Shown here one piece after another: positions 30,369-49,892 of a stretch of 64,000 nt of DNA. Position numbers and translations under genes: made by a program. Origin of the DNA: a bacterium (lineage in GTDB: Bacteria > Chloroflexota > Dormibacteria > Aeolococcales > Bog-877). The first letter of the stretch is position 1. The number at the start of each line of letters is the position of its first letter. The stretch lies in the NCBI GenBank assembly GCA_021785655.1, contig JAJYET010000004.1, forward strand, positions 8,907 through 72,906, given 5' to 3'. Below the pieces are notes generated by a model. It had not been told where the DNA came from, made no database searches, and saw only the letters and a list, made by a program, of their open reading frames with translations.

Positions 30369-30372
30369 GCCT
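30319..30372 (+). repeat. attL core (54 bp, 3' part of tRNA-Val)
   Basis: ctaccctgacacggtagaggccccaggttcgactcctggtgcgcccaccagcct identical to 49839..49892. Confidence 0.85.
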
Positions 30373-30437: not shown

Positions 30438-30526
30438 GGCCCAAATATTGACATGGGTACCGCTCTGGAGCAGAGGCTTTGACTTGAAAGCGGCTGCAGG
30501 CAGAGCGGACCTTGAAGGAGCCTCCG

Positions 30527-33065: not shown

Positions 33066-34377
33066 TGTGTGACAGGCACTCGTGGTGGGAGAGGGCCTTG
33101 CCGCTCCACCTGGCGAGGGGCATCTGGTGGCTCCCCTCCAGGGAGCATTCCACCGCCTGGAACTCCTCCAGGGTCTCCTCCCGCCAGATGGCCCGCGGGG
33201 AATGGGGCGGGAGGAGAGCGGCCCTGTCGCTGTCCAGGCAGATGTGGCTGTTCACGGCGGCCCGGACCCGGAAGGCGACCGCGCCCTGGAGATGGGCCTT
33301 CAGCTGCCCCGGCATCGCCTCGGCATCCTGGCGCTGGGTGCAGCAGACGAGGTGGACCCCCACCGACCGCCCCAGCCTGGCGACCTCCCCGAGCCGCCCG
33401 CTGGCCGCCTGCTGGGCGGCGCGGTCGGCCCGGTCGTCGCCCAGGTCGAGACAGGTCAGCTCCGCCACCTCGTCCACCGCGACCGGCAGCCGGGGCCAGC
33501 TCGGCGGGGAAGCCGGTCTCTCCGAGGAAGCAGCCTCCCGCACCTCCCGGAGCCGCCGGTCCACCTCCTGCCGGACCCGCCCCAGAGTGTCGGCCGCCGC
33601 CAGGAGGCCGTCCGCCAGGGGGTAGATGGCGTGAGGTAGGCCCCTGAAAGGGGCGAGCTCCACCCCACCTTCGAGGTCGATGACGGCCACCTGGAGGTCC
33701 TCCGGTTCGTGCTCCCGGCAGAGGACGGTGAGCACCTGCCGTAGGAAGACAGGCTTGCCCCCTCCGGTCATCCCGCCCGCCAAGAGGTGGGGGCGGGCGT
33801 TCAGGTCCACCCAGAAGGATCCCCGGCGCCCTCTGCCGAGGCCGATGAGGAACCTCTCCGGCGGCCGGGGCGAGCTGTACATCTCCCGGTACGCGAGGTG
33901 GTACGGGATGCGGTGCCGCAGCACCTCGGTCACCAGGCCCCCGCGCTCCTCACACACCCGCAGCGAACACTCACTGCGGGCCTCCAGGGGCTCCTGCCGC
34001 TGCGGGACGTCCCACAGGGTGACCACGGGCGGCACCCGCCAACGCAGGGTCACGGTGCGCCGCTGCCACCTCGCGTTTGGCCGCGCTCCCGGCGCCACCA
34101 CCCGGCCCCTCCGGTCCACACCCACAACGCCGCACTCCACCATCGCCCGGCGCAGTCTGGCCGCCGGGGACCTGCCCCTCCCGTCGACCGTGAGAAGCGC
34201 TGCGGCCGAGGCCGCGATGAGGGTCCCGCACGATGAGGCACCTTCGCCCCAGTGCAGTTCGGATGCCGCGACCGGGTCGGCCACCAGTACCCAGTCGGCC
34301 GGCTGCCCGAGGAGCCACGTCCCGACGGCCCCGGGATCCGATAGGGCCCTGGGGTCGGCCAGGTACCTGCCGCCCAT
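32707..34377 (-). CDS. traB: FtsK/SpoIIIE-family DNA translocase TraB/TraSA-like; 3' end uncertain
   Basis: Walker A GMTGGGKPVF, Walker B-like VAVDEVAEL, ..HLVCCTQR; ATG 34377 overlaps stop of upstream small ORF (TGATG); recognisable domain ends near 33120, remainder low-complexity read-through. Confidence 0.65.
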   Translation of the reverse strand: MGGRYLADPRALSDPGAVGTWLLGQPADWVLVADPVAASELHWGEGASSCGTLIAASAAALLTVDGRGRSPAARLRRAMVECGVVGVDRRGRVVAPGARPNARWQRRTVTLRWRVPPVVTLWDVPQRQEPLEARSECSLRVCEERGGLVTEVLRHRIPYHLAYREMYSSPRPPERFLIGLGRGRRGSFWVDLNARPHLLAGGMTGGGKPVFLRQVLTVLCREHEPEDLQVAVIDLEGGVELAPFRGLPHAIYPLADGLLAAADTLGRVRQEVDRRLREVREAASSERPASPPSWPRLPVAVDEVAELTCLDLGDDRADRAAQQAASGRLGEVARLGRSVGVHLVCCTQRQDAEAMPGQLKAHLQGAVAFRVRAAVNSHICLDSDRAALLPPHSPRAIWREETLEEFQAVECSLEGSHQMPLARWSGKALSHHECLSHSGGKIHTPPQTGSRIDRGGRPEDSGRRGGHAPLLRPWGAAGRSAGLPRGAQGGVSAHQRVPGGPLGRAVPLGSPAPPRLAELSVLGQLSQHGGGDRGAVPLPAGLHPDPLRLPPLPGGG

Positions 34378-34622
34378 CAGAACGAGGAGGCCGCCGGGGC
34401 CGGATGTGAAGCACGCAGCGGCGGGCTCGGGCTCCCCTCCGCGATGAAGCCCGAGATCAGCCAGATGGCGAGGAGCAGCGCCAGCAGGACCCAGCAGCCG
34501 ATGCGTCCCCCCGGGGTACCCCGGAGGAGGGAGCGGAGGACCGCCAGCACGACCATGACGCTGAACAGGACGGCGGCCGCCACCACCACGAAGGTGAGGA
34601 TCGCCCCCAGGACGCCGGTCAC
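34377..34622 (-). CDS. small two-TM membrane protein (Spd-like spread protein candidate)
   Basis: 81 aa, two hydrophobic helices; translationally coupled between the SSB-like ORF and traB. Confidence 0.35.
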   Translation of the reverse strand: MTGVLGAILTFVVVAAAVLFSVMVVLAVLRSLLRGTPGGRIGCWVLLALLLAIWLISGFIAEGSPSPPLRASHPAPAASSF

Positions 34623-34985
34623 TTCCGGGCCCTTGCCTGGGTCTCAGTGGCACCCTCCTTCCGGAGAGGCGAGAGGTACGTGATGTGGTCCGCCACCACT
34701 ACCAGGCGAAGCTGGCCTCCCCCCTCCGTGCCTTCCGGGTTGTAGAAGATGCCGCGGAGCCGGCCGGTCACCGCGACCCTTGAGCCCTTGCCAATAAAGC
34801 GCACCCGGTTCCTCGCCTGGCCCCCCGGGCCTCGACCCGACCCAGTCCGGCTCCTGGGTGCGGTCCCGCCGACACACCGCGCAGAGGGCGCTCTCCTTCA
34901 CCTGCGGGTCCGGCTCCCCTGCCGTGAGGAACTCCTGGACCCGAACCTCAGAGGCGACCACCCCGATCAGCTCGACGTGGGTCAT
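34619..34985 (-). pseudogene. small SSB-like OB-fold protein split over two frames
   Basis: frame A MTHVELIGVVASEVRV..ALCAVCRR; frame B ..GSRVAVTGRLRGIFYNPEGTEGGGQLRLVVVADHITYL resembles SSB L45/beta strands; frame change ~34800. Confidence 0.35.
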
Positions 34986-35309: not shown

Positions 35310-36101
35310 TCAATACCCCTCTGGCACCCGGGGGAAGACCAGGGTGGTCATGTCGCCCGGAAGGTGGCTCTCGATCACCGCCACCACCTGCTCCTGTTCC
35401 CGCATCACCCGGTACAGCTGCAGCACCGGCACCCCGTCCGGTAGCGCCAGCAGCGCCTTCAGGTGGGAAGTCGGCATGGAGGCCTCTACCACGTCCTCCC
35501 CCTCCTCCCCTGGCAGCCCCCTGAACTTGAGCAGGTCCGGGAGCCAGAAGCCGGTCAGCTCCTCTTCCCGGATCCCCGCCTCCTCCTCCGCCACCGGGTG
35601 AAGCCACACCCGGGCCAGGATCGGGGCCCCGGTGACGTCGATCCCGGTACCCTCCTGGACCAGCACCACCGTGCCTGGAGCCACCTGGAGAAGCTCCCCC
35701 ACCCAAGGGGTGACCGGGATCCTCCGAGTGAGGTCCCCCAGCAGCCCCTGAATCTTGAAGGCGCGCCCGGTGGAGGGATCAGCTGCCGGCTCCTCAACCG
35801 GCCCGACCTGCGGCCGGGCGGTGCCCACCGCCCGGGCTTGCACCCTCTGGCGCTCAGCCTTGGGGTCGCGGACGAAGCTCCCGGAGCCGTGCTCGGACGC
35901 CACCCTCCCTTCCTGCTTCAGCACCCCCAACGCGCTGCGCACCGTGGAACGGGTCACGTGGTACCTCGCCATGAGCTTGCGCTCAGAGGGGAAGGCCACC
36001 CCCGGCGGCAGACGTCCCTCCTCGATCTCGAGCCGGAGGGCCGCCGCCAGCTGCTGGTACAGAGGATCAGAGCTGTCTCGGTCCAAGCAGTACGTCGCCA
36101 T
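35310..36101 (-). CDS. korSA: GntR-family (HutC/UTRA subfamily) transcriptional repressor, KorSA-like
   Basis: N-terminal wHTH (SERKLMARYHVTRSTVRSALGVLKQEGRV) and UTRA effector domain. Confidence 0.8.
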   Translation of the reverse strand: MATYCLDRDSSDPLYQQLAAALRLEIEEGRLPPGVAFPSERKLMARYHVTRSTVRSALGVLKQEGRVASEHGSGSFVRDPKAERQRVQARAVGTARPQVGPVEEPAADPSTGRAFKIQGLLGDLTRRIPVTPWVGELLQVAPGTVVLVQEGTGIDVTGAPILARVWLHPVAEEEAGIREEELTGFWLPDLLKFRGLPGEEGEDVVEASMPTSHLKALLALPDGVPVLQLYRVMREQEQVVAVIESHLPGDMTTLVFPRVPEGY

Positions 36102-36254: not shown

Positions 36255-37412
36255 CTAGTGGTCCGGCGGCCAAATAGGTGAAGCCCATAAGCTGGCAGTA
36301 TGAAGATGATGCCAGCGGCGGAACCTTTGCCGGTGACCAGGGAAGACCGGGCGGCGTTGGAGAGGCTCGCGAAGTCGACTTCGCGGAGTCACCGAGCGGT
36401 GCTGCAAGCGCGAGGACTGCTGTTGGCTAGCGAAGGGGTGGCCAACTACGAGATCGCTCGGCGCGTGGGCGTGTGCTCCAACACAGTCCGGAGTTGGCGG
36501 CGGAGCTTTCCACAACGGGGTGTGGCGGGGGTGGGAGTGATTCGCCCCGGTCGGGGCCGCAAGCCGTGGCTGCCCGAGGGGACGGTGGCGGAGGTGGTGC
36601 GATTGACGCAGCAAGAACTGCCGGCTGATGGCTCCACCCACTGGACCACTCGGAGCTTGGCCCGACGAGTGGGGATCGGCAAGGACAGTGTGGGGCAGAT
36701 CTGGAAGGACCACGACCTCAAGCCGTGGAAGGTGGAGACCTTCAAGATCTCCAATGATCCTGCCTTCGAAGAGAAGCTGGTGGACGTGGTGGGGCTGTAC
36801 CTGAACCCGCCCGAGCGCGCTGTGGTGTTCAGCGTCGACGAGAAGACCCAGTGCCAAGCCCTGGACCGGACCCAGCCAGGACTGCCCATGCGGCCGGGCC
36901 GAGCGGGAACCATGACCCACGACTACAAGCGCAACGGCACCACCGACCTGTATGCGGCCCTCAACATCGCCACCGGGCAAATGCTGACCGACTGTCGGGA
37001 TCGACACACCGCCAAGGACTTCGTGCGCTTCCTGCGGATCATTGACCGCAACGTGCCGGTCCAGTTGGACGTGCACCTGGTCTTGGACAACCTCTCCGCG
37101 CACAAAGCCCCCGAGGTGCAGGCCTGGTTGGCACATCCGCAGCGACGTCGCTTTCACCTCCACTTCACGCCGACCAGCTCCAGCTGGGTCAATCTGGTCG
37201 AGCGCTGGTTCAAAGAGCTGACCGACAAACGCCCGCGGCGCGGCACCTTCAGCAACGTGCCCGCCCTCATCGACGCCATCAAACTCTGGGTGTCCCACTG
37301 GAACGACAACCCCCAGCCTTTTGTATGGCACACACCCGCGGACGAGATCATCGCCAAGGTCCGCAGGGGCCGCGCTGCACTAGCCCAACTTAATTCACCG
37401 ACGGACCACTAG
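36255..37412 (+). mobile_element. IS630-family insertion sequence, copy 1
   Basis: imperfect terminal inverted repeats CTAGTGGTCCGGCGG.. / ..CCGACGGACCACTAG; TA target duplication; single transposase ORF filling element. Confidence 0.75.
36300..37412 (+). CDS. IS630-family DDE transposase
   Basis: 370 aa; N-terminal HTH, DDE core (..VFSVDEKTQCQALDR.., ..VHLVLDNLSAHK.., ..YSSWVNLVERWF). Confidence 0.85.
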   Translation: MKMMPAAEPLPVTREDRAALERLAKSTSRSHRAVLQARGLLLASEGVANYEIARRVGVCSNTVRSWRRSFPQRGVAGVGVIRPGRGRKPWLPEGTVAEVVRLTQQELPADGSTHWTTRSLARRVGIGKDSVGQIWKDHDLKPWKVETFKISNDPAFEEKLVDVVGLYLNPPERAVVFSVDEKTQCQALDRTQPGLPMRPGRAGTMTHDYKRNGTTDLYAALNIATGQMLTDCRDRHTAKDFVRFLRIIDRNVPVQLDVHLVLDNLSAHKAPEVQAWLAHPQRRRFHLHFTPTSSSWVNLVERWFKELTDKRPRRGTFSNVPALIDAIKLWVSHWNDNPQPFVWHTPADEIIAKVRRGRAALAQLNSPTDH

Positions 37413-39937
37413 AGCCTGGGGTCGACCGGCTCGCTCTCCAGTGCGAGGATTCCGAAGACGCACTCGTGAACCCGGTGCAGGCCTTCTGATCGGACGAACC
37501 TCTCTAAGGCCTCGATCCCCAGGGCAAACTCGCGAACCGCCAGCGAGCGCTTGAGCCCGAGCGAGCGTTCCCGGAGCCGGCTGAGGTTGGCGGGCAGCGT
37601 GTACTCGGGACCGTAGATGATGCGGAGGTACTCCGGTCCGCGGCACTTGACGGCGGGCTGGAGCAGCCCTCGGCGGCCCGTCGCCACAAAGGGCAGGGGT
37701 TTCACCACCATGCCCTCTGCGCCCCTCTGAACCAGGTCCTCCCACCAGCGGATCGCGGTCCGCTCGCTGACCGGGTCGGTGAGGTCAACCGAGGCGTGGG
37801 CAGTGGCGACGATGACGGAATCGGCGTCCGACGCCAGGCGGGCCAGGGTGGCCATGTGCCACACATGGTCTCGATCTGCATGCACCACCGCCCCGCTGGC
37901 GAGGAGGTGGAACGGAGCGATCCGCAGATCGTCGACGGACTTCACGTCCCAGCAGTAGCGGCGATAGGCATCCCGGTACCCGCTAATGAGCCGGGCTCTG
38001 GCCTGGGTGCGATCGGCCAAGTCGCCGACGTCGACTCCGCGCGCACGCGCAGCGTCGAGGGCTGGCAGCGCCGCCGCGAACGCCTGCTCCGCGGCCGAAG
38101 CTACTGCGGAGTACTGGCTGACCAAGAGCTCTCCTGCCTTGACCGACCAGGGCATCACCTCCATGTCGAGGGCAGCCCAGTCGCTAGCGAGCTCGTCCCA
38201 GAGGCCGGCCCGGTCCAGAGCGTTGCGCAGCCGCTCTAGAACAGCCGCCTCAAAGGCGCGGTCGGCGAAGAACCTCCGGCCGGTCCGTGTGTACACGATC
38301 CCCCCCGCGTCACTGGCGATGTGAAACCGGCGCTCGATCGCGCCCGGATCACGGCCCGCGATGGCGACGGCGCGCGACCCCATGTGCTTCTCTTGGCACA
38401 CAACCTGTTCCACCCCGCCGCGACGGAAATAGTCAAAGGCCTCGGCGGGGTGCTCGAGCAGGCCCTCGTTCGCGGTCGTTGCCGGGGGAGACATGGTGGG
38501 CGGCAGATAGACGATCCAGCGAGGATCGACGGCGAAGCGGCTCACGGCCTCGAGGGCAGCAGCGGCGTTCTCGTCGGGGATCGTGACGTTGCCCACGAGG
38601 CGCGTGGTGATCGTCCGCCGTCCCAGGACGTCCGCGGCGTACAGGGCTAGGCTGTCACGCTCGCTGGGAGCCTGAGCAGCCGACAGCGGCCGGGTGGGCT
38701 GGTAGTACATGCGCGCGGCGGGTACCTCGACGAGCTCCCGCTCGGGGTAACGTAGGGCGGTGAGCCGACCGCCAAAGACGCAGCCCGTGTCGATGCAGAT
38801 CGTGTTGTTCAGCCACTCGGCAGCGGGTACGGGCGTATGACCGTAGACCACCATGGCGGCACCACGGTAGTCGGCGGCCCAGTTGTAGCGAACGGGAAGC
38901 CCGAACTCATCGGTCTCCCCGGTCGTCTCCCCATAGAGGGCGAATTCCCGAACCCGGCGGGAGGCGCGTCCCTGGAGCCTCTCGGCCATCCCAGCGTGAG
39001 CGACCACCAGCCGTCCGTCATCAAGAACCAAGTGGCTTACCAGCGTGTCGATGAAGGAGGCGACCTCCTGGCGGAACTCGAACGGCTCGGCTTCTAGCTG
39101 CGCCAGCGATTCGGCCAGGCCGTGGCTCACCGTCACTTGCCGCCCTTGGAGGGCGCGCATCAGCTTGATGTCGTGATTGCCGGGGACGCAGAGTGCGCTG
39201 CCGGTCCGAGTCATGGCCATAACGGTGCGGAGGACCCCGGGGGTCGAGGGGCCGCGATCGACCAGGTCGCCGAGGAAGATGACCTTCCGTCCCTCCGGAT
39301 GGCTGTACCCGCCGTCGGCCGGCTGATAGCCGAGACGGCCGAGGAGGGCGACCAGCTCCTCATGGCAGCCATGGACGTCCCCGATCACATCGAATGGCCC
39401 GTGCCAGTCGCGGCGGTCGGTCCAGAGCCGCTGGCGCTCGACGACCGCGGCATCGACCTCCTCTTGGGAGCGGAGGATGGTCACATAACGGAAGCCCTCG
39501 CGCTGCAGATCCCGTGCCGACCGGTGGAGCTGGAAGATCTGGTTGCGGACCACGTGGGGCCCCAGATTCCGGTCCGGGCGCTCGCGCGAGCGCTGCTGAA
39601 GAACCGACTCCTGGAGATCGAAGACGATCGCCACCGCGAGTACGTCGTTGTCACGAGCGAGCTCGACCAGCGGACGGCGCGCTTCCTTCTGGACGTTGGT
39701 CGCGTCGATGACCGCGAGGCGCCTTAGACCGAGCCTCGCCGAGGCGACGGCGTGCATCACCGCGAAGGCCGGCTGGTTGACGTCGAGGGCATTCTCGTCG
39801 TCGGCCACCATGGCCCTGCAGGCGTCGGAGGAGATAACCTCGGTGGGGAGGAAGTGCTTGCGGGCGAAGCTGGACTTGCCCGAGGAGGTCGCGCCGACCA
39901 GTACCACGAGGGAGAGCTCAGGGATGGTGATGGTCAT
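37409..39937 (-). CDS. pnkp: polynucleotide kinase-phosphatase Pnkp (kinase/phosphatase/ligase)
   Basis: P-loop GATSSGKSS, calcineurin-like GDVHGC..GNHD phosphoesterase, C-terminal adenylyltransferase/ligase domain; 842 aa; 4-nt overlap with hen1. Confidence 0.85.
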   Translation of the reverse strand: MTITIPELSLVVLVGATSSGKSSFARKHFLPTEVISSDACRAMVADDENALDVNQPAFAVMHAVASARLGLRRLAVIDATNVQKEARRPLVELARDNDVLAVAIVFDLQESVLQQRSRERPDRNLGPHVVRNQIFQLHRSARDLQREGFRYVTILRSQEEVDAAVVERQRLWTDRRDWHGPFDVIGDVHGCHEELVALLGRLGYQPADGGYSHPEGRKVIFLGDLVDRGPSTPGVLRTVMAMTRTGSALCVPGNHDIKLMRALQGRQVTVSHGLAESLAQLEAEPFEFRQEVASFIDTLVSHLVLDDGRLVVAHAGMAERLQGRASRRVREFALYGETTGETDEFGLPVRYNWAADYRGAAMVVYGHTPVPAAEWLNNTICIDTGCVFGGRLTALRYPERELVEVPAARMYYQPTRPLSAAQAPSERDSLALYAADVLGRRTITTRLVGNVTIPDENAAAALEAVSRFAVDPRWIVYLPPTMSPPATTANEGLLEHPAEAFDYFRRGGVEQVVCQEKHMGSRAVAIAGRDPGAIERRFHIASDAGGIVYTRTGRRFFADRAFEAAVLERLRNALDRAGLWDELASDWAALDMEVMPWSVKAGELLVSQYSAVASAAEQAFAAALPALDAARARGVDVGDLADRTQARARLISGYRDAYRRYCWDVKSVDDLRIAPFHLLASGAVVHADRDHVWHMATLARLASDADSVIVATAHASVDLTDPVSERTAIRWWEDLVQRGAEGMVVKPLPFVATGRRGLLQPAVKCRGPEYLRIIYGPEYTLPANLSRLRERSLGLKRSLAVREFALGIEALERFVRSEGLHRVHECVFGILALESEPVDPRL

Positions 39938-41382
39938 CGCTGGAAGACGGCCATCTGGGTAGGGGGCCCGAGTCGATCGTCAGCGTCACCGATGGGACGG
40001 AACGACACCGAGTATCCAAAGCGGGACGCAGCCGATTCGGCCCAGGCGTGGAACTCGGAGCGGGTCCACTCGAATCGGTGGTCCGGATGACGAGTTCGCC
40101 GGGGTCCGAGGGTCGGGAACAGCTGGTTGTATTCCGCGTTCGGGGTGGTCACGACCACGGTGGATGGTCGAGCGTGGCCCAGCACCGAGGCGCTGAAGGC
40201 TTCCAGGCGATCTAGATCCAGGTGCTCGATGACCTCGACCGCCACGGCGGCATCCCAGCCCGTGAGCCGTTCGTCGCGGTAGGTGAGCGAGCCGTGCACG
40301 AGCGAGAGGCGCTCGCGCTGGCGTGGGGCCAGGGAGTTGAGGTGGAGCTTCCGTGCCGCCCTTTCCAGGGCTCGCACCGAGACGTCCACACCGAGGATGC
40401 GGGTGAACCTCGGGTCGGCAAGGAGCAGTTCGATGAGGTGCCCCTCGCCGCAGCCGAGATCAGCGACCGTGGACGCACCCGCTTGGCGGATCGTCTCGAC
40501 CACGGCCTGGAGCCGTTGCTGGTTGAGGTTCAATGGGCGCTCCAGTCCCGCCTCGAGAGCGTCGCCCCGATTGACCCGCGCCTCCGGGTCGATGTCGTCC
40601 TCCTCGGTGAGACGACGCAGCGCCTCCCGGGTGAGGCCGCGCTGGTCGCGCAGGTACCGCCTCACAATCAGCTCGCGTTCCGGGTGCGTCCCCAGCCACT
40701 CCCCCGCTCGTTGCAGGAGCTTGTCCACCTCGGCGTCTCCCACCCAGTAGTGCTTCTCGCCGTCGAGGGCTGGGATGAGGACGGTGAGATGAGTGAGTAG
40801 ATCCGCGAGCCGGAGCGTGCCACGGAGCGTCGTTCGGTGGTACCGGGATAGGCCCCAGGCTGGGAAGCTGCTGTCGAGGAGCTCAGAAGCAACGTCGACC
40901 GTATACCCGAGCGGCTCGAAGAGCCGGTGCACTAGGTCCTTGCCTCCCTCCGACGGCAGTGCGGCGATGGTCGCCTCTAGGGGGATGGCCTGAGCCGCGA
41001 GCTCCGGCCGGTCGGTCGAGCGCCCGCTCCGGGCCGACGCGAACGCCTTGCCGAGTGCCACCGAGAGGAGGGACGTCGCGGCGTACGGGCGGTCGTTGAC
41101 GTAGTGGTCCACCCCGCCGGCTGCCGGGGTCCGCGACCCACGGCCTCGCCGCCGCACCAGGTCGATCGGGTCGATCTCGAGGAGGAGGGCGACGGTGCAG
41201 CGCTCGGCGGTCGCCTCCGGGTAGAAGACGTGGGCCACTCCGCCGAACACGTCGAACGTGTTGACGCGAGCTGGGTTCTTGTGGAGCAGGAATCCGAGAT
41301 CGGTGGCCGGCAGGTGGGTCGTGGTAACGGTCAAGAACATGAGGCCCGAAGTCTCGCATACCGAGCGGGGCCGTCTGGCCAC
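39934..41382 (-). CDS. hen1: 3'-terminal RNA ribose 2'-O-methyltransferase Hen1
   Basis: 482 aa; SAM-binding motif VADLGCGEG, ..VEVIEHLD..; N-terminal Hen1-specific domain; operon partner of pnkp. Confidence 0.85.
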   Translation of the reverse strand: MARRPRSVCETSGLMFLTVTTTHLPATDLGFLLHKNPARVNTFDVFGGVAHVFYPEATAERCTVALLLEIDPIDLVRRRGRGSRTPAAGGVDHYVNDRPYAATSLLSVALGKAFASARSGRSTDRPELAAQAIPLEATIAALPSEGGKDLVHRLFEPLGYTVDVASELLDSSFPAWGLSRYHRTTLRGTLRLADLLTHLTVLIPALDGEKHYWVGDAEVDKLLQRAGEWLGTHPERELIVRRYLRDQRGLTREALRRLTEEDDIDPEARVNRGDALEAGLERPLNLNQQRLQAVVETIRQAGASTVADLGCGEGHLIELLLADPRFTRILGVDVSVRALERAARKLHLNSLAPRQRERLSLVHGSLTYRDERLTGWDAAVAVEVIEHLDLDRLEAFSASVLGHARPSTVVVTTPNAEYNQLFPTLGPRRTRHPDHRFEWTRSEFHAWAESAASRFGYSVSFRPIGDADDRLGPPTQMAVFQR

Positions 41383-41665
41383 AAAGGGCTGGGAACGGCC
41401 TGAGCACCGTTGCCCCAGGGACGACTACCGGAAGACCGCGGCGGTGACACCTTGCCTGACACCTTCCCGTCCCGCACGAGACGAGTTTTCGCCTGTCAAC
41501 GGCCATCCGAGGTCGGCCGGAACTCAGCACCGTCGGGGTCGCGGAATCCAACCTCGGACGACTCGGACGCCCCTGGCACCCACGGACACCGACCGAGGCA
41601 ATTTGCGGACCCGCCTCTTCGCTTCCGTTGATCCGGGGTGGGGTAAGCCTCAGCCCGATCTGATG

Positions 41666-42754
41666 CTAGTGTCCTGCTTCCGAAGTAGCTACGCAAGAGC
41701 GAGCGATGCTGGCGAGGATCTGGTCGGCGGTCTTGACCCAGGTGAAGGGCTTGGGGTGCTCGTTGTTGGCCTTGAGGTAGACGCGGATTGCGTCCTCCAG
41801 AGCGCGCACGCTCTGGTGTGAACCCCGTCGGACCTGGCGCTCCGTGAGCAGTCCGAACCAGCGCTCCACCTGGTTGATCCAGGACGAATAGGTCGGGGTG
41901 AAGTGCAGCTGAAACCGGGGATGGAGCAACAGCCAACGATGGACCGAACGAGTCTTGTGGGTGCCGTAGTTGTCGAGTACCAGATGAACGCCGAGGTCGG
42001 CGGGGACCTCGGCGTCGATGCGCTGCAGAAAGCTGAGGAACTCGGTACTGCGATGGCGCCGGTGAAGGTCGCCGATCACCCTGCCGGTGCCGATGTCCAG
42101 GGCGGCGAACAAGGTGGTGGTCCCGTGGCGGTGGTAGTCATGGGTCTGGCGCTCGGGGAGCCCGGGCCGCATGGGCAGCAGCGGCTGGGTACGGTCCAGC
42201 GCCTGAATCTGGCTCTTCTCGTCGACGCAGAGGACCAGCGCCGCCTCCGGGGGGTGCAGGTACAGGCCCACGATGTCCCGCACCTTCTCCACCAGCTGCG
42301 GATCGTTGGAGAGCTTGAAGCTCTCGCTGCGGTGCGGCTGCAGACCGAAGGCATGCCAGATGCGCAGCACGCTGGTGTCGCTCAGCCCACTGGCTTCGGC
42401 CATACTCCTGGTGGTCCAGTCGGTGGCGTTGGCCGGCTTGGTCTCCAGAGTTCGCACCACCACCTGCTCCACCTGCTCGTCGGTGATTCGCCGAGGGGCC
42501 CCACACCGGGGCTCGTCCAGAAGACCCGCCAGCCCCCGGCCGATGTACCGCTTTCGCCACTTCCCCACCGTGGCAGCGCTCACCCGCAGCTGGGCCGCCA
42601 CATCCCGGTTGCTGACCCCGTCGGCGCAGCGCAGTACGATGTCCGCCCGGCGCGCCAGCCCGTTTGAGGTGGTCCTGCGCCGCCGCCACCGCAGGAGATG
42701 CTCCCGGTCCTCCGGGCTGACCAGCAGGTCGGGTTTGGGACGGCCACGGAGCAT
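41666..42754 (-). CDS. IS630-family DDE transposase
   Basis: 362 aa; same architecture and conserved blocks as 36300..37412. Confidence 0.85.
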
Positions 42755-42826
42755 GATCTGGCCCTCATTGTGAGGCCTCCAACGACCGCTCCATTATAAC
42801 CAGTATCTTCAGAAGCAAGACGCTAG
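41666..42826 (-). mobile_element. IS630-family insertion sequence, copy 2 (diverged paralogue)
   Basis: terminal inverted repeats CTAGTGTCCTGCTTCCGAAGTAGCT / AGTATCTTCAGAAGCAAGACGCTAG. Confidence 0.75.
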
Positions 42827-43220
42827 CGGCCTAGTAGCGAATTGATTGCGCCTCTCCTGGAGCTGTCGTACCCCGTTTGCGGTACCAGCTGAGCTGGACC
42901 CGGGCCAGGGGGTCCGGTCACTCACGCCAAGTCTGGGTCGGAACCTGCCAGTCGGCCCGGGATGGGGTCCTGCCTGCCAGACGTGGCGCAAGCGCCTCCC
43001 GGATCTCCTCAAGTGTGAGTCCCACCTGCTGGGCGGCGGCCATCAAGGCGAGCCGTCGCAGAGTAGCTCGAGCGAACCGGCGCTGTGTTGGTGGCACCAC
43101 TGGGTGAGGCAGTAGGAAGGGGGAAACGGCAGAGCTACTCGAGGCTGGCGGGGACGGGAACGGCTGGCCGCAGTACTGAAGCTGCCGCTACCCCGGGGGG
43201 CCATGTGTACCGTATAGTTG

Positions 43221-43249
43221 TCTTCTTGTTGTACTTCTGCTATGGTGCG
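43221..43249 (+). promoter_or_regulatory. candidate promoter (TTGTCT-17-TATGGT) and TGTAC repeats upstream of XRE operon
   Basis: AT-richer 190-bp intergenic; TGTAC direct repeats at ~43203 and ~43229. Confidence 0.25.
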
Positions 43250-43292
43250 TAAGACCAGTGTGGAAAGGCCGCGATGAAGGGGTAGGACTGGC

Positions 43293-43571
43293 GTGAAGCA
43301 GACTTCGCTTCATAACCGGGTCGCGGTTCTGCGCACCGAGCACGGACTGAGCCGGCACGAACTGGCCGAGGCGGTGGGCGTCAACTACCAGACCATCGGC
43401 TACATCGAACGTGGCGAATACAGCCCCAGCCTGGACCTGGCCTTCCGCCTGGCTGAGGTATTCGAACTCCCGATCGAAGCGATTTTCTCGCGGCGACCCA
43501 TGAGGCCGATGAGCCAGCAGCTCTTCGCCCCGGATCGGGCGCCGGCCGTGGGGCCTGGGACCGAGAGGTGA
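43293..43571 (+). CDS. XRE-family HTH transcriptional regulator (YozG-like)
   Basis: LRTEHGLSRHELAEAVGVNYQTIGYIERGEYSPSLDLAFRLAEVFELPIEAIF; stop overlaps GTG of next gene (GTGA). Confidence 0.7.
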   Translation: MKQTSLHNRVAVLRTEHGLSRHELAEAVGVNYQTIGYIERGEYSPSLDLAFRLAEVFELPIEAIFSRRPMRPMSQQLFAPDRAPAVGPGTER

Positions 43572-44638
43572 CCAGCACCACGACCCGTCTAACTCGCTAC
43601 CGCCGCCCCGACTTCCTGGTCGGAGCTGTGCTTGCCCTTTACGCCGTGATTATCGCGACCTTGACCTTCGCACTTCCGGGACGGTGGCAGGCGTACAAGG
43701 TCTACCTGGTCTTCGTCGCGGTGACCATTCTGGCGGTCAGGCTGGTCCCCGTCGAGCCAGGGTCCCTACTTCGGCGCCGGGTGGCGCGGCGGACTCTGGT
43801 CGGAGTTATCGTCGGAGTCTGTCTGCTGATGGTGGTCGTCGGAAGTGGCCTGGGCTACTACCTGTGGCTCGGGATCCTCTGCCTGGTTTTCTGCGACGTG
43901 CTGTTGGGGCGGGCCACCCAGCGGATTGCCACTGCCCCTGACGACCATGTCGATGAGTGGCAGGAGTCGCTGCGCAACCGGGCCCATCGCACTGCGTACT
44001 GGGTCATCGCGGCGTCCTTTGTGGTGTTGTTCTTCAGCACCTATGTGGCCACCGAGCAGACGAGGGCATGGCTGTTCCAGGGCCGTGGAGGAGGGCTTTG
44101 GATCGTCTCCGCTGAACTGCTCTTCTGCCTACCCGCCATGGTGATCGCCTGGGGCCAGTCGGACCCTGTCTCCGAGTTTCTATCCCCACCGCGGCACCTG
44201 GCGTGGCTGCGACGGGCGACCGTTGCGATGGTGAGCGCATCACTGCTGGCGCCGGTGCTGGCCAGTCTCGCACTGCCCGTACTGCCAATCACAACCCAGT
44301 CCTCCGTCCGGCCGAGCCAAGGCCGGTGTCTGAACTTCAGAGCGACGGAGACCGTCGGGATCCTAGTCGAGGCTCAGTTGCCTCTCGCGGCTCTGGCCTG
44401 TTGGAACGGGCGGCGCGCGGTCGAAATGTATGGGATGAACCGGAGTGACTGCGTGCAGGCCGACACCCAGCTAGCCACAACAGAGACCATCGCATGCCGG
44501 CGCATGGTCTCCACGACTGGGACGCTGCGCTTCGTCTACACCGCCAGAGTTGGCTCTCCGTTCTTGCCCTTCATGGCAAGGGTTGTGACCCTCCGAGTGA
44601 CGCTCACGCGTACCGGCAGGGTGCTGCAGTTCCCGTGA
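43568..44638 (+). CDS. polytopic membrane protein (7 predicted TM) with Cys-containing C-terminal domain, paralogue A
   Basis: 356 aa; cytoplasmic-loop motif DEWQESLRNRAHRTAYWVI; C-terminal ~110 aa with CWNGRRAV..C..C; GTG start overlapping XRE stop. Confidence 0.5.
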   Translation: MTSTTTRLTRYRRPDFLVGAVLALYAVIIATLTFALPGRWQAYKVYLVFVAVTILAVRLVPVEPGSLLRRRVARRTLVGVIVGVCLLMVVVGSGLGYYLWLGILCLVFCDVLLGRATQRIATAPDDHVDEWQESLRNRAHRTAYWVIAASFVVLFFSTYVATEQTRAWLFQGRGGGLWIVSAELLFCLPAMVIAWGQSDPVSEFLSPPRHLAWLRRATVAMVSASLLAPVLASLALPVLPITTQSSVRPSQGRCLNFRATETVGILVEAQLPLAALACWNGRRAVEMYGMNRSDCVQADTQLATTETIACRRMVSTTGTLRFVYTARVGSPFLPFMARVVTLRVTLTRTGRVLQFP

Positions 44639-45627
44639 ACGTTGTCAGACCGGTGAGGACCTGGAAAGGTCGCCGCCGAGGGCACCTTCGGAGAGCTTGC
44701 GTGGTCATAGCGGGGGCGCTGTGGCTCCTCCTAGCCTCTCCCGTACCGGAGTCATTGAGCGGGTGGGGGATAGCTGTGGTGCTCACGATTGTCGCCATCG
44801 TCCTGGCCCTGGGGGCTGGCACCGGATGGATTGCCTTCCAGCGAGCAGATCGAGTCGATGAGTTCAGTCGGGAGCTGCGAGATCGTGCCTACCGGCTCGC
44901 GTTCAGGTTCTTCGTGTTGGGAGTGCTCCTCCTGGCTCTTGCGTGGTTCGTGAGCCAAGTGCTCCATGGGCAGATCACTTGGGCGGTCCCCGACCCGGTA
45001 GGCGCCAGACGCATGGCGGCGCTACTGGTTCTGTTGGCCACGCTGCCGACTGCGATGACGGTCTGGATGGCTCCCGCTGCAGGGGATGACCCCCGGGCTG
45101 CGGGCTCGCCAGCGCGGGCCGGCCGACTCACTTGGCGTTGGCTGCCCTTGATTTCCGTCCCAGCGCTGTTCACGGTGTGGTTGTCCGGCGTGGCCCTCAT
45201 GCCGGTAAGTGGGGCGACCCTGGTCACCCTGCCAGATCCCGGGTTCGCTATGACAAATGGACATTGCGGTGCATTCGCGGCCACGCAGCAGGTGGCGCGC
45301 GGCTTTGGCCCGACAGTCCGACTCCTCGCCCAGGTGTGCTGGAATGGTCGGGAAGCGTGGGTGATCAACGACCCCGGAGCGCCGACACCTCGCTACTTCG
45401 GACCTTTGTCGTCAGGCGTGGAGCCGACCCTCTGTTCTCCCGCCAACGACGGTACCGACTTCGGAGTGGTCAGGCGAGTGGGCTGCCGAGTGTGGATCAA
45501 TGGGGCGGGAACTGTCCACGTGCGCCTTAGGGCCCAGGCGGGGTCTGGTCTGCTGAGCATCGGGCGGAAATGGATCCAGATCACCTTGGTGGTGACCAGG
45601 AGCGGTCGAGTTCTGATATTTACGTGA
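44635..45627 (+). CDS. polytopic membrane protein, paralogue B
   Basis: shares DEFSRELRDRAYRLAF loop motif, CWNGREAW and terminal ..TRSGRVLIFT with paralogue A; probable GTG start 44635 overlapping stop of paralogue A (GTGA). Confidence 0.5.
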   Translation: MNVVRPVRTWKGRRRGHLRRACVVIAGALWLLLASPVPESLSGWGIAVVLTIVAIVLALGAGTGWIAFQRADRVDEFSRELRDRAYRLAFRFFVLGVLLLALAWFVSQVLHGQITWAVPDPVGARRMAALLVLLATLPTAMTVWMAPAAGDDPRAAGSPARAGRLTWRWLPLISVPALFTVWLSGVALMPVSGATLVTLPDPGFAMTNGHCGAFAATQQVARGFGPTVRLLAQVCWNGREAWVINDPGAPTPRYFGPLSSGVEPTLCSPANDGTDFGVVRRVGCRVWINGAGTVHVRLRAQAGSGLLSIGRKWIQITLVVTRSGRVLIFT

Positions 45628-45829
45628 GAGGACGGCCTGGGCACTGAAGCCCGGAAGTCGATGTCCCCCAACGTGGCTTGGTGCCGCAGCTTGGCCGCCT
45701 TGAGCCGGGTCGCCAGCCGCCGGCTCTCCCCCCAGCTCATCTCCCGGTCCTCAGGCAGCCCGATGCAGTCCTCGAAGGGCAGCTCCAGGCCCTGGGTCTG
45801 CTCCAGCTGCTCCCGCAGCGCCGGAACGG

Positions 45830-46100
45830 CTGCTGTTGGCGAATCGAGCTCGCGCGCCGTGCCTGGGGCCAGGCCGAGCTATCGCGTGCTGCTCGTCTCC
45901 GAGCCCCGGCTGTGCGAGTCGGCTCTCTCGGGCGGGCCGATCGCTCCCAGGACGCTCCGGAAGATAGCCATGGCGCTGGCGACGGCTCCAACGCTGGCCG
46001 CTCTCGATTCGATCCTTCCGCCAGTGCGTGGAGTGGCGAAGGACCGCGACGGCGCCAGGCCGGAGGTTCGTCCCACTTTGATTCCGTACCGGCGTCCAGC
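45830..46100 (+). pseudogene. frameshifted remnant of an XRE-like regulator gene (paralogue of 31595..31843)
   Basis: ..WRIELARRAWGQAELSRAARL.. in one frame and ..TLRKIAMALATAPTLAALDSILPP.. in another; compare LRFEIARRGWNNVDLARAAG / TLRKIAVALAAAPPVSGVDEILPA. Confidence 0.35.
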
Positions 46101-46344: not shown

Positions 46345-46356
46345 CCCCCCCCCCCC
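46345..46356 (+). repeat. homopolymeric C12 tract abutting transposon inverted repeat
   Basis: cccccccccccc directly followed by tggag and the left IR. Confidence 0.8.
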
Positions 46357-49099: not shown

Positions 49100-49838
49100 G
49101 CCCTATCCTCCAGCGGAACCCGCAGTCATGGACCAGCTTGGAGTCTATGCGGTCTGCCCGGTCCACCTACCTTCCGGCCTTCTTCGCCGCGGCTCGGCTA
49201 CCATGACACGGAGCCGCCCCGCCACTCGCCTCTCTCGATTCGACGCTTCCGACGGCTCGTAACCAACGACCGGCACGGCACCAGTCCGGAGGTTCGTCCG
49301 GATTTCACCGCGCATCTGCGTCCAGGGTCCTCAGCCGCGACTGATCCATCGGCTCCCGGGGCTCTTCCCGAACGGCAGGCGTCCGACCCCTGGGAGCCTG
49401 GCGGCAACGGGAACCCTCCGTAGCCTCTGGCTCGGCAACCGAGTGGCAACTCCGAAGGCCAAGTACCTTCCGCATTCCCTGCGAGCGGCGCCCGGGCGCC
49501 ACCGGTAGGTTCGCTCCCAAGATTGCGCCCGGGCGACGGCAGCGCATCCCTGACCGGGTCACACCCTCTTTACTTTGGGTCCTTTGCCCTGGCGAAAGTA
49601 ACCCGGGTCCGATCCGCGACCTCCACCCTTGCCCGCAAGCCAACGTCGACGAATACTCTCCGGGGCCAGCCCCCCCGGCGCCGCGGGGGTCATGGCTGGA
49701 GGTAGCCGCACTCGTGGCTAACGCCCTGTCAGGCGCGCCTAGCCCCCGCATGGGTAGCGCTCTTTAGAAGCGCATCTGTGGAATACTCCTTTGCACTTAC
49801 AGTCAGAACGCACACTTGTGCGACGTCTCGGTAGAGGC

Positions 49839-49892
49839 CTACCCTGACACGGTAGAGGCCCCAGGTTCGACTCCTGGTGCGCCCACCAGCCT
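49839..49892 (+). repeat. attR core (54 bp copy of tRNA-Val 3' part)
   Basis: identical to 30319..30372. Confidence 0.85.

Follow-up and report, generated by a model that had tools for sequence, protein, structure and literature searches.

A conserved, putatively autoregulated HTH_3-membrane protein cassette, primarily chromosomal in Dormibacterota and also carried by an FtsK-type integrative element

SdpR/SdpI of Bacillus subtilis comprises SdpR, an autorepressor of the ArsR family, and SdpI, a polytopic immunity protein encoded in the same operon, which sequesters SdpR. Plasmids of the pIJ101 type pair small Kor repressors with membrane Kil or Spd proteins. The cytolysin operon of Enterococcus faecalis has a repressor gene (cylR2) placed back-to-back with the gene of CylR1; this protein is small, polytopic and membrane-bound, and is believed to pass an extracellular peptide signal to CylR2 with no phosphorylation involved (bioRxiv 10.1101/2024.08.13.607848). 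Operons of the DUF2178-like and allied families (DUF6773, DUF6442, DUF3169) consist of a small XRE regulator followed by one or more translationally coupled paralogous membrane proteins, an arrangement shared with the cassette described here, which lies in a 64,000-nt window (the whole stretch of DNA analysed) and encodes an HTH_3 regulator and two membrane proteins, MP1 and MP2.

Each of these systems resembles the cassette in part. CylR2, a 66-aa HTH_3 repressor, is detectably homologous to the cassette regulator (E=2e-8). Its partner CylR1 (94 aa, three predicted TM helices; sequence taken from plasmid NZ_CP124896.1, L039 907-1191) carries the residues KDER right after the first TM helix, yet a comparison with the short-family profile A6 described below gave an hhalign probability of 1.4% over 14 columns, i.e., no demonstrable homology. 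The cyl gene order, with the membrane protein first, is the reverse of that in the cassette; cyl regulates a divergent toxin operon, whereas no lanthipeptide genes are present at the cassette; and CylR1/CylR2 lack an outer domain, unlike MP1/MP2. SdpR/SdpI resembles the cassette in its operon logic, with an autorepressor first and then a polytopic membrane protein, potentially both sensor and output. This likeness may be taken as functional analogy only; the two systems are not homologous, and no SdpI-family Pfam match was obtained. Compared with the DUF2178-like (PF09946) proteins, MP1 and MP2 add one TM helix and a four-Cys outer beta domain of ~115-140 aa, and MP1 differs from both these proteins and MP2 in having two extra N-terminal helices.

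The cassette runs in the order HTH_3 gene, MP1, MP2 (ORF listing and raw sequence; Table 1). The TGA stop codon of the HTH gene is overlapped by the GTG start of MP1, and that of MP1 by the GTG start of MP2 at 44635, so that both GTGA junctions on which the initial annotation had based translational coupling are seen in the sequence. The 330-aa start of MP2 is consistent with independently annotated 330-aa homologues (P0041 and P0044, NCBI). Alignment of MP1 with MP2 shows 27% identity over 322 columns (BLASTP, E=1e-10), bearing out their earlier description as paralogous polytopic membrane proteins. ATGA/GTGA overlaps or near-abutting junctions recur among relatives of the cassette, and the order HTH-MP1-MP2 with overlapping or abutting junctions is found in all untruncated MP1-type loci examined: an HTH_3 gene lies directly upstream in every MP1-type locus whose upstream region is present, and an MP2-type gene lies 3' of MP1 in every untruncated full-length (MP1-type) locus. 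Identities of MP1 and MP2 move together from locus to locus (84/84, 81/74, 50/46, 46/42 and 62/61), the pattern expected of co-evolving partners. HTH, MP1 and MP2 are a real, conserved three-gene unit.

Table 1. Features of the cassette and its surrounding element (nucleotide positions are those of the window; residue numbers are those of the protein named)
Feature	Position	Strand	Details
tRNA-Val gene	30292-30368		ARAGORN
attL, 3' part of tRNA-Val + 4 nt	30312..30372	+	
Tyrosine integrase of the element	30512..31480	+	Pfam Phage_integrase, E=1.9e-31
FtsK/SpoIIIE-family translocase, putative transfer protein	32707..34653	-	FtsK_SpoIIIE PF01580, E=6.8e-19
GntR/UTRA regulator of the element	35310..36101	-	Pfam GntR + UTRA
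Block between GntR and cassette	36291..43100	.	Pfam
IS630-family transposase, first	36291-37412	+	Pfam
Pnkp, RNA-repair gene	37409-39979	-	Pfam
Hen1, RNA-repair gene	39934-41424	-	Pfam
IS630-family transposase, second	41666-42754	-	Pfam
MerR fragment	42918-43100	-	Pfam; divergent neighbour of the cassette
Putative operon promoter	43218..43246	+	-35 TTGTCT 43218-43223, 17-nt spacer, -10 TATGGT 43241-43246
Putative HTH operator TGTTGTA-N4-TGCTAT	43227..43243	.	Promoter spacer, into the -10 hexamer
HTH_3 (XRE-family) regulator	43293..43571	+	92 aa, GTG start
Regulator, HTH domain	residues ~7-66		
Regulator, C-terminal tail IFSRRPMRPMSQQLF	residues 63-78		Conserved
MP1 membrane protein	43568..44638	+	356 aa, GTG start
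MP1, predicted cytoplasmic loop GRATQRIATAPDDHVDEWQESLRNRAHRTAY	residues 114-144		
MP1, LPAMVIAWGQSD			Predicted cytoplasmic end of TM6
MP1, predicted extracytoplasmic all-beta domain	residues ~241-356		Conserved Cys 254, 278, 295, 310
MP2 membrane protein, MP1 paralogue	44635..45627	+	330 aa, GTG start
IstB-like (IS21 helper) fragment	45393..45878	-	Pfam IstB_IS21, E=4.2e-6, profile positions 13-72/238
attR, repeat of tRNA-Val 3' end at the far end of the element	49832..49892	+	

The regulator matches Pfam HTH_3 (PF01381) over residues 13-62 with 53.4 bits (E=2.7e-14; gathering threshold 23 bits), in agreement with its earlier identification as a 92-aa XRE/HTH protein. The further label of phage-type repressor was too specific, the closest solved relatives being a 65-aa PbsX-family regulator (9k3w, E=1e-13) and then CylR2 (phmmer, E=2.1e-8, residues 8-69), neither of them a phage repressor. 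HTH proteins are 55-93% identical across all loci, and a C-terminal tail that the solved 65-66-aa relatives lack is kept in all 21 of the HTH proteins aligned, short-type loci included. The putative promoter was read from the sequence and from its alignment with six other loci, in which TTGACA-like and -10-like hexamers occupy the same position; a generic sigma-70 scan did not call it. Between these hexamers lies the heptamer TGTTGTA, invariant in seven of seven aligned upstream regions, which follows the TTGACA-like hexamer and begins a site extending into the -10-like hexamer. The candidate operator in the window matches the palindrome TGTTGTA-N4-TACAACA imperfectly; at several other loci the site is perfectly palindromic and matches both strands. 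TGTTGTA-N4-TNCNAC occurs once per locus in 19 loci, always just 5' of the HTH gene and including the distant short-type loci L038, L040 and L041, and the 64-kb window contains a single site (one mismatch; 0.09 expected by chance). A conserved palindromic site at the HTH promoters implies autorepression, and no target of the regulator was found beyond its own operon. Read together, the sequence features strongly support HTH, MP1 and MP2 as a single, putatively autoregulated operon.

MP1 has seven TM helices with the N-terminus inside (hydropathy and AlphaFold2 model), and MP2 has five, the first two helices of MP1 being absent (hydropathy and alignment to MP1). Counts of K+R in predicted inside versus outside segments are 17 versus 3 for MP1 and 18 versus 1 for MP2, a bias that places the DE..R.RA.R loop in the predicted cytoplasm, as had been proposed, and the C-terminal domain on the predicted outer side. 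The motifs listed in the initial annotation are all present in both translations, namely the loop motif (DEWQESLRNRAHR in MP1, DEFSRELRDRAYR in MP2), the Cys motif CWNGR in both proteins, and the C-terminal motif (TRTGRVLQF in MP1, TRSGRVLIF in MP2). The AlphaFold2 model of MP1 has a pLDDT of 77 for the whole protein and of 90.5 for the C-terminal domain; the corresponding domain of MP2 is of the same four-Cys beta type with an insertion of ~15 residues, and Foldseek gave no fold match for the outer four-Cys all-beta domain. The strongest conservation in MP1 and MP2 lies in the cytoplasm-facing parts. Invariant residues of MP1 were taken from alignments A1, A2 and A5, the best conserved in A5 being G114, R115, A116, T117, D129, E130, E133, R136, N137, R138, A139, H140, L188, P189 and A194. 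Both proteins share a four-helix membrane core marked by two motifs, DE(R/W)Q..R.RA(H/Y)R on the cytoplasmic side and AW.EPD. Neither MP1 nor MP2 had a match at threshold in Pfam, NCBIfam, PADLOC, PHROG or PDB (sub-threshold Pfam matches in the window proteins were DUF6442, E=0.25, and DUF6463, E=0.16), and the earlier statement that they belong to no described family is thus correct at curated thresholds.

A profile built from MP1 and MP2 retrieves 1,182 proteins, 268 of them at E<=1e-10. Many are ~150-180 aa long, have four TM helices and align to the TM3-TM6 core; four-TM proteins of ~160 aa reach E values of 1e-14 to 1e-20 against this profile. These short relatives share LDERQ..R.RAYR and LP..V.AW.EPDP, and ~1,000 shorter relatives without the outer domain are defined by the same two motifs as MP1/MP2. 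All short relatives with a visible neighbourhood (P0141, L038, L040 and L041) lie directly after an HTH gene with the tail and operator of the Dormibacterota cassette. Tandem arrays of 2-7 paralogues occur among relatives, with up to seven behind one HTH gene in L040, and short relatives are also found in other genomic contexts. Some of these proteins have weak Pfam matches to the DUF2178-like families: amongst 36 short proteins, DUF2178 was matched in 10 (E 0.0009-0.05, below the 22.8-bit cut-off) and DUF6773 in five, and precomputed annotations label P0150 and its neighbours DUF2178. For 27 members of the MP1/MP2 family the Pfam matches were all sub-threshold (DUF6773 in eight, best 0.091; DUF6442 in five; DUF2178 in one, 0.045). 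The cassette is an extended form of a pairing between an HTH regulator and a membrane protein that is widespread but uncharacterised.

The three-gene cassette was found in ~30 Dormibacterota loci (homologue clusters: MP1, n=39; MP2, n=11), and the full-length form occurs almost exclusively in Dormibacterota MAGs. The majority of cassettes lie in housekeeping chromosomal neighbourhoods (Pfam-annotated in L003/4, L005, L007, L009/10, L011/12, L042 and L043), some with conserved synteny (e.g., beside the M23 and LysM/CHAP cell-wall hydrolase genes in L007 and L042) and one with a MIP channel among the neighbours (L003); in 20 further loci, none of the mobile genes used as queries had a homologue within 10 kb. 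Carriage on a single family of FtsK/integrase elements is seen in only four loci, namely the window, L001/L002, L013 and L016. Divergent neighbours of the cassette are a MerR fragment in the window, FtsK or GntR genes in L001 and L016, and housekeeping genes elsewhere. The initial annotation had regarded exclusively chromosomal homologues as a sign against a mobile-element function; most homologues are indeed chromosomal, yet these four loci are not. Alleles borne by elements are closest to different chromosomal alleles (L016 to L005, 62%; window to L003, 50%), a pattern that points to exchange with host copies more than to a function specific to the element. The module is primarily chromosomal and typical of the uncultured soil phylum Dormibacterota, of which we know of no cultured host.

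The copy in the window sits within a ~19.5-kb element integrated at a tRNA-Val gene, consistent with the earlier placement of the cassette inside an element. Direct repeats of 61 nt (97% identical, with a 54-nt exact core) enclose the tyrosine integrase, the FtsK/SpoIIIE protein and the GntR regulator. The element is AICE-like in having a tyrosine integrase next to a tRNA gene, att direct repeats on either side, a single FtsK/SpoIIIE-type translocase and a GntR-type regulator, and it resembles FtsK(TraB)-type plasmids and AICEs of actinomycetes in its tRNA-integrating integrase, FtsK/SpoIIIE translocase and GntR. The window integrase shares 50% identity with the one that lies at the end of the related element L016, and the window GntR is 89% identical over 266 aa to that of L016 (5867-6667), which is the direct divergent neighbour of the cassette at ~250 bp from the HTH gene. 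The block that separates GntR from the cassette in the window is absent at the corresponding position of L016; its two IS630 copies are inverted and just 76% alike over a 164-nt matching stretch. FtsK homologues adjoin the cassette in L001/L002, L013 and L016. An IstB-like ORF on the opposite strand shares the final ~235 nt of MP2, and this fragment against the 3' end of the cassette is IS debris. One cassette clade occupies a fixed slot beside the GntR gene of an FtsK-type integrative element.

Several readings of the cassette can be weighed against these data. Our best guess, a tentative one, is that MP1 and MP2 together sense a signal and titrate the repressor of their operon, in the manner of SdpR/SdpI or CylR1/CylR2. 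The operator and promoter sequences strongly support a first step in which an HTH_3 dimer would bind the palindrome-like TGTTGTA-N4-T.C.A(C) between its own -35 and -10 and repress transcription of HTH, MP1 and MP2, and the overlapping junctions support translational coupling that would set a fixed ratio of the three proteins. MP1 (7 TM) and MP2 (5 TM) would span the membrane from an inner N-terminus to an outer C-terminus and act as a pair, probably a heteromer. Each would expose a disulfide-stabilised beta domain outside the cell and present to the cytoplasm the DE(R/W)Q..(L)R.RA(H/Y)R helix together with the last core helix at its AW.(E/S)(P)D end. From the conserved sequences we infer that these cytoplasmic motifs contact the regulator, probably via its tail SR.P(M/L).P(M/L)S..L(F/Y). 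Detection of a cue by the outer domains or the membrane core would let the pair hold the repressor at the membrane and induce the operon, producing more of the pair, which would itself be the response. Several observations count against this sensor model: a sensor and nothing more would lack an output of its own, given that the regulator targets found are its own operon alone; the outer domain has no fold match pointing to a ligand; the seven-paralogue array of L040 resembles effector/immunity arrays more than sensors; CylR1 shows no demonstrable homology to the membrane proteins and precedes the repressor in cyl; and the promoter was missed by the generic scan. A simple regulated effector is likewise possible but doubtful: HTH would autorepress in response to a cytoplasmic cue, and MP1/MP2 would be output only, with no feedback on the regulator and an envelope job such as upkeep of the cell wall or membrane, or protection from a membrane-active compound. 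The autoregulatory operator, the arrays of relatives and the synteny with hydrolase genes in L007 and L042 all fit such an effector, but a 92-aa HTH protein without an evident ligand-binding domain leaves the source of the signal unexplained, and conservation of the cytoplasmic motifs and of the non-DNA-binding tail of HTH is more easily explained by protein-protein contact.

An unlikely, more restricted role would be a conjugation-related one for the element-borne copies, in the form of entry exclusion, donor-recipient recognition or a kil/kor- or Spd-like membrane function, as in actinomycete-style conjugative elements of the FtsK type, with a Kor-like HTH repressor. The cassette does occur on one element family in four loci, and the contrast between L016 and the window in GntR (89%) and in MP1/MP2 (46/42%) amounts to a conserved slot with strongly divergent alleles, which resembles recognition or exclusion determinants; a small repressor and membrane proteins beside GntR may also recall, by analogy, KorB/KilB and the Spd genes. 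Unlike kil/kor-Spd modules, however, most cassette homologues lie off elements and the host phylum is not Actinomycetota. Most cassettes are in housekeeping contexts without a nearby integrase, FtsK or transposase gene, some of them syntenic across divergent genomes; the element alleles are each nearest to different chromosomal ones; short relatives occur in other contexts; and no similarity to known exclusion protein families was found in Pfam or NCBIfam. Abortive infection or another anti-phage defence, with membrane proteins released from repression on infection, is very improbable. The window island does hold other accessory genes (DUF3800, Pnkp/Hen1, IS elements) and HTH bears a weak resemblance to PADLOC-listed regulators (HTH_VI, the RmrA N-terminus, CapH, control proteins), but those matches are limited to the generic HTH domain, MP1 and MP2 match no PADLOC family and nothing in PHROGs, most relatives lie in core chromosomal neighbourhoods rather than defence islands, and the module is near-universal and syntenic within the phylum, unlike patchy defence systems. 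The exclusion or abortive-infection role suggested in the initial annotation thus gained no positive support, there being no PADLOC or PHROG match and mostly housekeeping contexts, and we have no evidence for the cassette as a plasmid-exclusion or anti-phage system. Equally remote is a role in housekeeping transport, as a transporter or channel controlled by a local repressor, in favour of which the polytopic, often chromosomally encoded proteins and the MIP channel neighbour in L003 might speak. Clear homology to a housekeeping transporter family, which had been named as potential counter-evidence to a mobile-element role, was not obtained: searches with MP1/MP2 and relatives gave nothing significant, only scattered sub-threshold matches (all E>0.002) in individual members (e.g., TauE, MFS_1 and PTS IIBC, E 0.003-0.02), and no PDB sequence match, and a 4-TM core with a long charged cytoplasmic helix and no repeat or inverted-repeat architecture is unlike known transporters.

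The sensor model has a wider, more speculative and rather doubtful extension, in which the DER-motif 4-TM proteins and their tailed CylR2-like repressors would constitute a large class of transmembrane systems, so far unrecognised, that signal in one step (>1,000 representatives at 50% clustering). If this is true, the membrane protein would control the repressor directly through the DERQ..R.RAYR helix and the SR.PM.PMS..LY tail, with no phosphorylation; in MP1/MP2 of Dormibacterota the class would for the first time show an ectodomain devoted to ligand binding, with a fold not described before; and an FtsK-type conjugative element would have taken up alleles of the pair, perhaps to sense or mimic a host signal.

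The cassette, comprising the gene for an XRE-family regulator (HTH) and the genes for two polytopic membrane proteins (MP1 and MP2), is a real feature that was accurately described in the initial annotation and is still uncharacterised. Both the ORF listing and the raw sequence give GTGA at the two cassette junctions, in exact agreement with the three ORFs and overlaps first proposed, and the start assigned to MP2 agrees with independently annotated 330-aa homologues (P0041 and P0044). The proposed paralogy of the membrane proteins is upheld by 27% identity over 322 columns (E=1e-10), and every motif originally listed was found in the translations: the loop motif reads DEWQESLRNRAHR in MP1 and DEFSRELRDRAYR in MP2, CWNGR is present in both proteins, and the C-terminal motif is TRTGRVLQF in MP1 and TRSGRVLIF in MP2. 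GC3 values for HTH, MP1, and MP2 (0.81, 0.78, and 0.72, respectively) lie at the low end of, or under, the 0.80-0.95 range of the window's strongly coding ORFs, and G+C is 0.60-0.68 across 43-49 kb of the window versus about 0.70 elsewhere. In homologous loci from other genomes (L-numbers), junctions show ATGA or GTGA overlaps or nearly abut, and the order HTH, MP1-type, MP2-type is kept in every untruncated MP1-type locus. Sequence and comparison together indicate that the three genes form a single, translationally coupled operon and that their co-occurrence is obligate. MP1 and MP2 identities vary in step from locus to locus, as would be expected of partner proteins.

Features of the cassette and of the integrated element that carries it (window coordinates)
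Feature	Position	Strand	Remarks
tRNA-Val	30292-30368		attachment gene of the element
att repeats	30312-30372 and 49832-49892		61 nt, 97% identity, 54-nt exact core
Tyrosine integrase	30512-31480		inside element
FtsK/SpoIIIE translocase	32707-34653	-	inside element
GntR/UTRA regulator	35310-36101	-	inside element
Pnkp	37409-39979		RNA repair
Hen1	39934-41424		RNA repair
MerR C-terminal fragment	42918-43100	-	abuts one end of the cassette
Putative promoter hexamers	43218-43223 and 43241-43246		TTGTCT and TATGGT
Putative operator	43227-43243		TGTTGTA-N4 pattern, between TTGTCT and TATGGT
HTH gene	43293-43571	+	GTG start, 92 aa
MP1	43568-44638	+	GTG start, 356 aa
MP2	44635-45627	+	GTG at 44635 overlaps MP1 stop, 330 aa
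IstB (IS21 helper) N-terminal fragment	45393-45878	-	ORF overlaps last ~235 nt of MP2 on the opposite strand

Full-length relatives are few and taxonomically confined. A search of 5.8 billion clustered proteins returned only 39 clusters for MP1 and 11 for MP2, with one weak DUF2178 match as the sole Pfam domain among them, and the few named clusters derive from Candidatus Dormibacterota MAGs. Scanning one genome per GTDB species with an MP1-only alignment yielded 26 loci, nearly all from Dormibacterota; a few carry other labels (Chloroflexi, Limnocylindrales, or Acidoferrum), and one Trueperaceae locus has a short form only. On the complete Dormibacteraeota chromosome OY970307.1 (L037, 10001-11040), the MP1 homologue lies in three pieces in different frames, which suggests a frameshifted gene, either a pseudogene or a product of assembly errors. 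The earlier statement that the membrane proteins could not be placed in a described family is borne out at curated thresholds, since neither protein matched Pfam, NCBIfam, PADLOC, or PHROG models at threshold or, in a sequence-profile search, any PDB entry at E<=1. No exclusion, defence, or transporter family was matched in these databases; the transporter homology that the initial annotation had named as the outcome contrary to its proposal was thus looked for without a match.

In MP1, hydropathy and an AlphaFold2 model (27-sequence alignment, mean pLDDT 77) indicate seven TM helices and, after them, an all-beta C-terminal domain; for MP2, hydropathy and alignment to MP1 indicate five, the first two MP1 helices being absent. 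Lysine and arginine residues are concentrated in the predicted cytoplasmic segments relative to the outer loops (17 versus 3 in MP1, 18 versus 1 in MP2), and because of this bias the DE..R.RA.R loop is predicted to be cytoplasmic and the C-terminal domain to lie outside, the topology prediction called for initially having been run with these three approaches. By sequence and comparison, MP1 and MP2 are thus predicted to be N-in/C-out proteins whose conserved motifs face the cytoplasm and whose cysteine domain lies outside. The four conserved cysteines of that domain (C254, C278, C295, and C310 in MP1 numbering) fit an extracytoplasmic location. Modelled alone, the domain forms a nine-strand antiparallel sheet (pLDDT 90.5, pTM 0.79). 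Foldseek searches of the PDB and BFVD with the full MP1 model and the C-terminal domain model gave no match at E<=0.001, and the best PDB matches (among them the PBP2a N-terminal region, SdnG, the OCP C-terminal domain, and a VirB8-like domain) were discarded as weak (TM-scores 0.1-0.36).

The regulator is a clear member of the HTH_3 family (53.4 bits versus a Pfam cut-off of 23) and is unusually conserved, with 55-93% identity between loci against only 28-85% for their membrane proteins. All 21 aligned HTH proteins (21/21) carry a tail of the form IFS(R/T).P(M/L).P(M/L)S..L(F/Y) after the HTH domain. The tail is missing from the closest solved relatives of HTH, which are 9k3w (a 65-aa PbsX-family regulator, E=1e-13) and CylR2 (66 aa, E=2e-8). 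Seven aligned upstream regions share little beyond a TTGACA-like hexamer, the sequence TGTTGTA (invariant in 7/7), a right arm that is partly or perfectly palindromic (e.g., TGTTGTA-CAGA-TACAACA in L009), and a -10-like hexamer. In 19 loci there is a single match to TGTTGTA-N4-TNCNAC, in each case immediately 5' of the HTH gene; among them are three (L038, L040, and L041) that encode short relatives of the membrane proteins. The window's copy is the sole operator-like site in 64 kb, where 0.09 are expected by chance. There is strong comparative evidence that HTH would autorepress the cassette through this putative operator. A generic sigma-70 scan of 42800-46400 called no promoter and so missed the inferred one, and its four terminator-like matches, three of them within the MP1 coding region, were unconvincing. 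In L001 and L013, whose cassettes are the closest relatives of the window's, the HTH gene is flanked directly by a divergently oriented, shortened FtsK-like gene (L001 6576-7717, encoding 344 aa; L013 2360-3192); the two genes therefore share the intergenic region that contains the conserved operator, which could in principle act on the FtsK-like gene as well.

The initial annotation placed the cassette inside a mobile element, and correctly so: the att repeats, integrase, FtsK, and GntR genes bracket or accompany it. The window is a segment of chromosome (IF-2, SecDF, RuvB, TyrRS, PheS/T, and ThrRS on the left; an MFS transporter and a DinG-like helicase on the right) in which a repeat of the 3' part of the tRNA-Val gene delimits an integrated element of ~19.5 kb. 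Integrase, FtsK/SpoIIIE, and GntR together make up the gene set of actinomycete-type integrative conjugative elements, and the element is of this AICE-like style in an apparent Dormibacterota genome. The window's copy of the cassette sits amid IS debris, with an IS630-family transposase, the Pnkp/Hen1 RNA-repair pair, a second IS630-family transposase, and the MerR fragment between it and the GntR gene, and the IstB fragment, a DUF3800 gene, and an IS1595 transposase on its 3' side. The Pnkp/Hen1 pair lies between the two inverted IS630-family genes (36291-42754), which are only 76% alike over a 164-nt matching stretch, and this interval resembles a composite insertion that separates the GntR gene from the cassette.

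Other features of the window were recorded alongside. A 53-nt unit is duplicated perfectly in tandem (47417-47469 and 47470-47522); the duplication is found a short way upstream of the IS1595-family transposase gene (47805-48761, -) and reaches into the 3' end of a 96-aa ORF (47481-47771, -) with no Pfam match. A 74-nt direct repeat (46039-46112 and 49265-49338, 74% identical) falls in the element's right part. Neither the DUF3800 protein (46410-47375, +) inside the element nor a PIN-domain protein (51389-51985, +) beyond attR matched a PADLOC model. Far to the left, adjoining tRNA-Thr and tRNA-Tyr genes, a 391-aa ORF (3776-4951, +) carries a PspA/IM30 domain and a C-terminal PspA-associated (PspAA) domain.

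Most homologous loci have chromosomal surroundings. L003/L004 and L005 share a block of RsgA, FAD-binding, type III PKS, and ICMT genes; L007 and L042 share a run of aromatic amino-acid, M23, LysM/CHAP, and M20 peptidase genes leading to the cassette, with a response regulator and a GAF-histidine kinase past it; PdxS/PdxT and other housekeeping genes accompany L009/L010, ribosomal protein L25, RarA, and methylmalonyl-CoA mutase accompany L011/L012, and surface-protein genes accompany L043. At L001, a TrwC relaxase, an integrase, and the FtsK-like gene adjoin the cassette. A tblastn search of all loci used the window's integrase, FtsK, and transposases plus the relaxase and integrase of L001 as queries; it detects relatives of those queries alone, and it flagged only L001/L002, L013, and L016. 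Because of these Pfam contexts and the few tblastn flags, the module is considered mainly chromosomal and partly vertically inherited. An exclusively chromosomal distribution had been named at the outset as incompatible with the proposed exclusion or abortive-infection function; the distribution is mostly chromosomal, yet the window, L001/L002, L013, and L016 show mobile neighbours.

Association with elements is more than a one-off. At L016, the GntR gene is 89% identical to that of the window, FtsK 71-80%, and the integrase 50%, and the cassette begins ~250 bp from GntR in divergent orientation; the window's 7.2-kb block (IS630, Pnkp/Hen1, IS630, MerR fragment) is missing at the corresponding position and is therefore most simply an insertion into the GntR-cassette junction. 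The two element-borne cassettes are only 46% (MP1) and 42% (MP2) identical, and each has a nearer chromosomal counterpart (L016 to L005, 62/61%; window to L003, 50/46%), a pattern that we read as cassette alleles having been exchanged between elements and chromosomes at a fixed slot. That the cassette is recent element cargo was rejected because the related element of L016 has the cassette in the same slot beside GntR, and that the chromosomal copies are decayed elements was rejected for L007/L042 because these loci share an extensive syntenic stretch with aromatic amino-acid biosynthesis genes.

When 1.84 billion representatives were searched with a profile built from 38 MP1/MP2 sequences, 1,182 matches were obtained at E<=0.001, of which 268 reached E<=1e-10 and 82 reached E<=1e-30. 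Many of them are not full-length but 150-180 aa and align to profile positions ~68-208, the four helices TM3-TM6 of MP1. These short relatives share an N-terminal RR.LV, two helices, the sequence LDERQ..R(D/N)RAYR.AY with an invariant DER, two further helices ending in LPT.V.AW.EPDP, and an acidic tail, and MP1 and MP2 carry the same motifs. Weak sub-threshold Pfam matches were seen among 36 short relatives (DUF2178 in 10/36, DUF6773 in five, DUF3169 in two); MP1 and MP2 themselves fall below the DUF2178-type thresholds, membership being hinted at only via intermediates. Each short relative with a visible neighbourhood (P0141, L038, L040, and L041) sits after an HTH_3 gene, followed in L041 by two paralogues. 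In L040 (1205-4988), on a 1.9-Mb contig and beside a PhdYeFM antitoxin gene, one HTH_3 gene precedes seven tandem, mostly overlapping genes for 152-174-aa membrane proteins, the extreme paralogue array of the module; three of the seven have precomputed DUF2178 hits (faint, weak, and unmarked). Given the common motifs and the HTH_3-first order, the window's operon is an elaborated member of an arrangement of a small XRE regulator with one or more DER-motif membrane proteins. The extra helix and ectodomain appear restricted to one phylum (nearly all loci are from Dormibacterota), and the arrangement itself is known and widespread but unstudied.

One possible, tentative account of the module is sensing coupled to repressor sequestration. 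MP1 and MP2 would work as a pair, their cytoplasmic motifs would contact the regulator's tail, and a cue detected by either the outer domains or the membrane core would lead to retention of the repressor at the membrane and thereby to induction of the operon. This account follows the logic of SdpR/SdpI, in which an autorepressor is held by its own operon's polytopic membrane protein, and the relay idea of CylR1/CylR2. The latter pair supplies the concept of phosphorylation-independent signal relay (bioRxiv 10.1101/2024.08.13.607848). The homology of CylR2 to HTH is real; CylR1, whose KDER after the first helix suggested membership of the DER-motif family, was rejected as a homologue (hhalign probability 1.4%, no Pfam match). 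A full-text literature search on DUF2178, DUF6773, DUF6442, DUF3796, and DUF2975 turned up passing mentions only, and nothing useful was found for YozG/DUF3169/COG1476 or 9K3W.

It is equally simple, and may be entertained to a like degree, that MP1 and MP2 are regulated output only, for which the paralogue arrays of relatives such as L040 speak. A conjugation-related role of the element-borne alleles would accord with a divergent recognition determinant at a fixed slot (46/42% identity between the window and L016) and is judged rather unlikely; the exclusion or abortive-infection function proposed initially found no support, there being no family match and the module being mainly chromosomal. 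Defence and transport, for which no family was matched, are each considered highly improbable, and the rest of the probability falls to something else.

Very many bacterial genomes have annotated pairs in which a small XRE repressor accompanies a small membrane protein, and to our knowledge there is essentially no functional literature on such pairs apart from CylR1/CylR2. The locus offers a defined putative operator and promoter architecture conserved across distant members, two conserved cytoplasmic motifs and a regulator tail through which a direct-contact signalling model can be tested, and a phylum-specific elaboration with a predicted extracytoplasmic, cysteine-stabilised domain. In addition, it provides an example of an FtsK-type, tRNA-integrating element in the uncultured phylum Dormibacterota, with the module in a fixed slot and with very divergent alleles. 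If the module is not a signalling device, it would be an ordinary lineage-specific membrane operon; if it is a phosphorylation-independent signalling device, many 'hypothetical' gene pairs would be explained.
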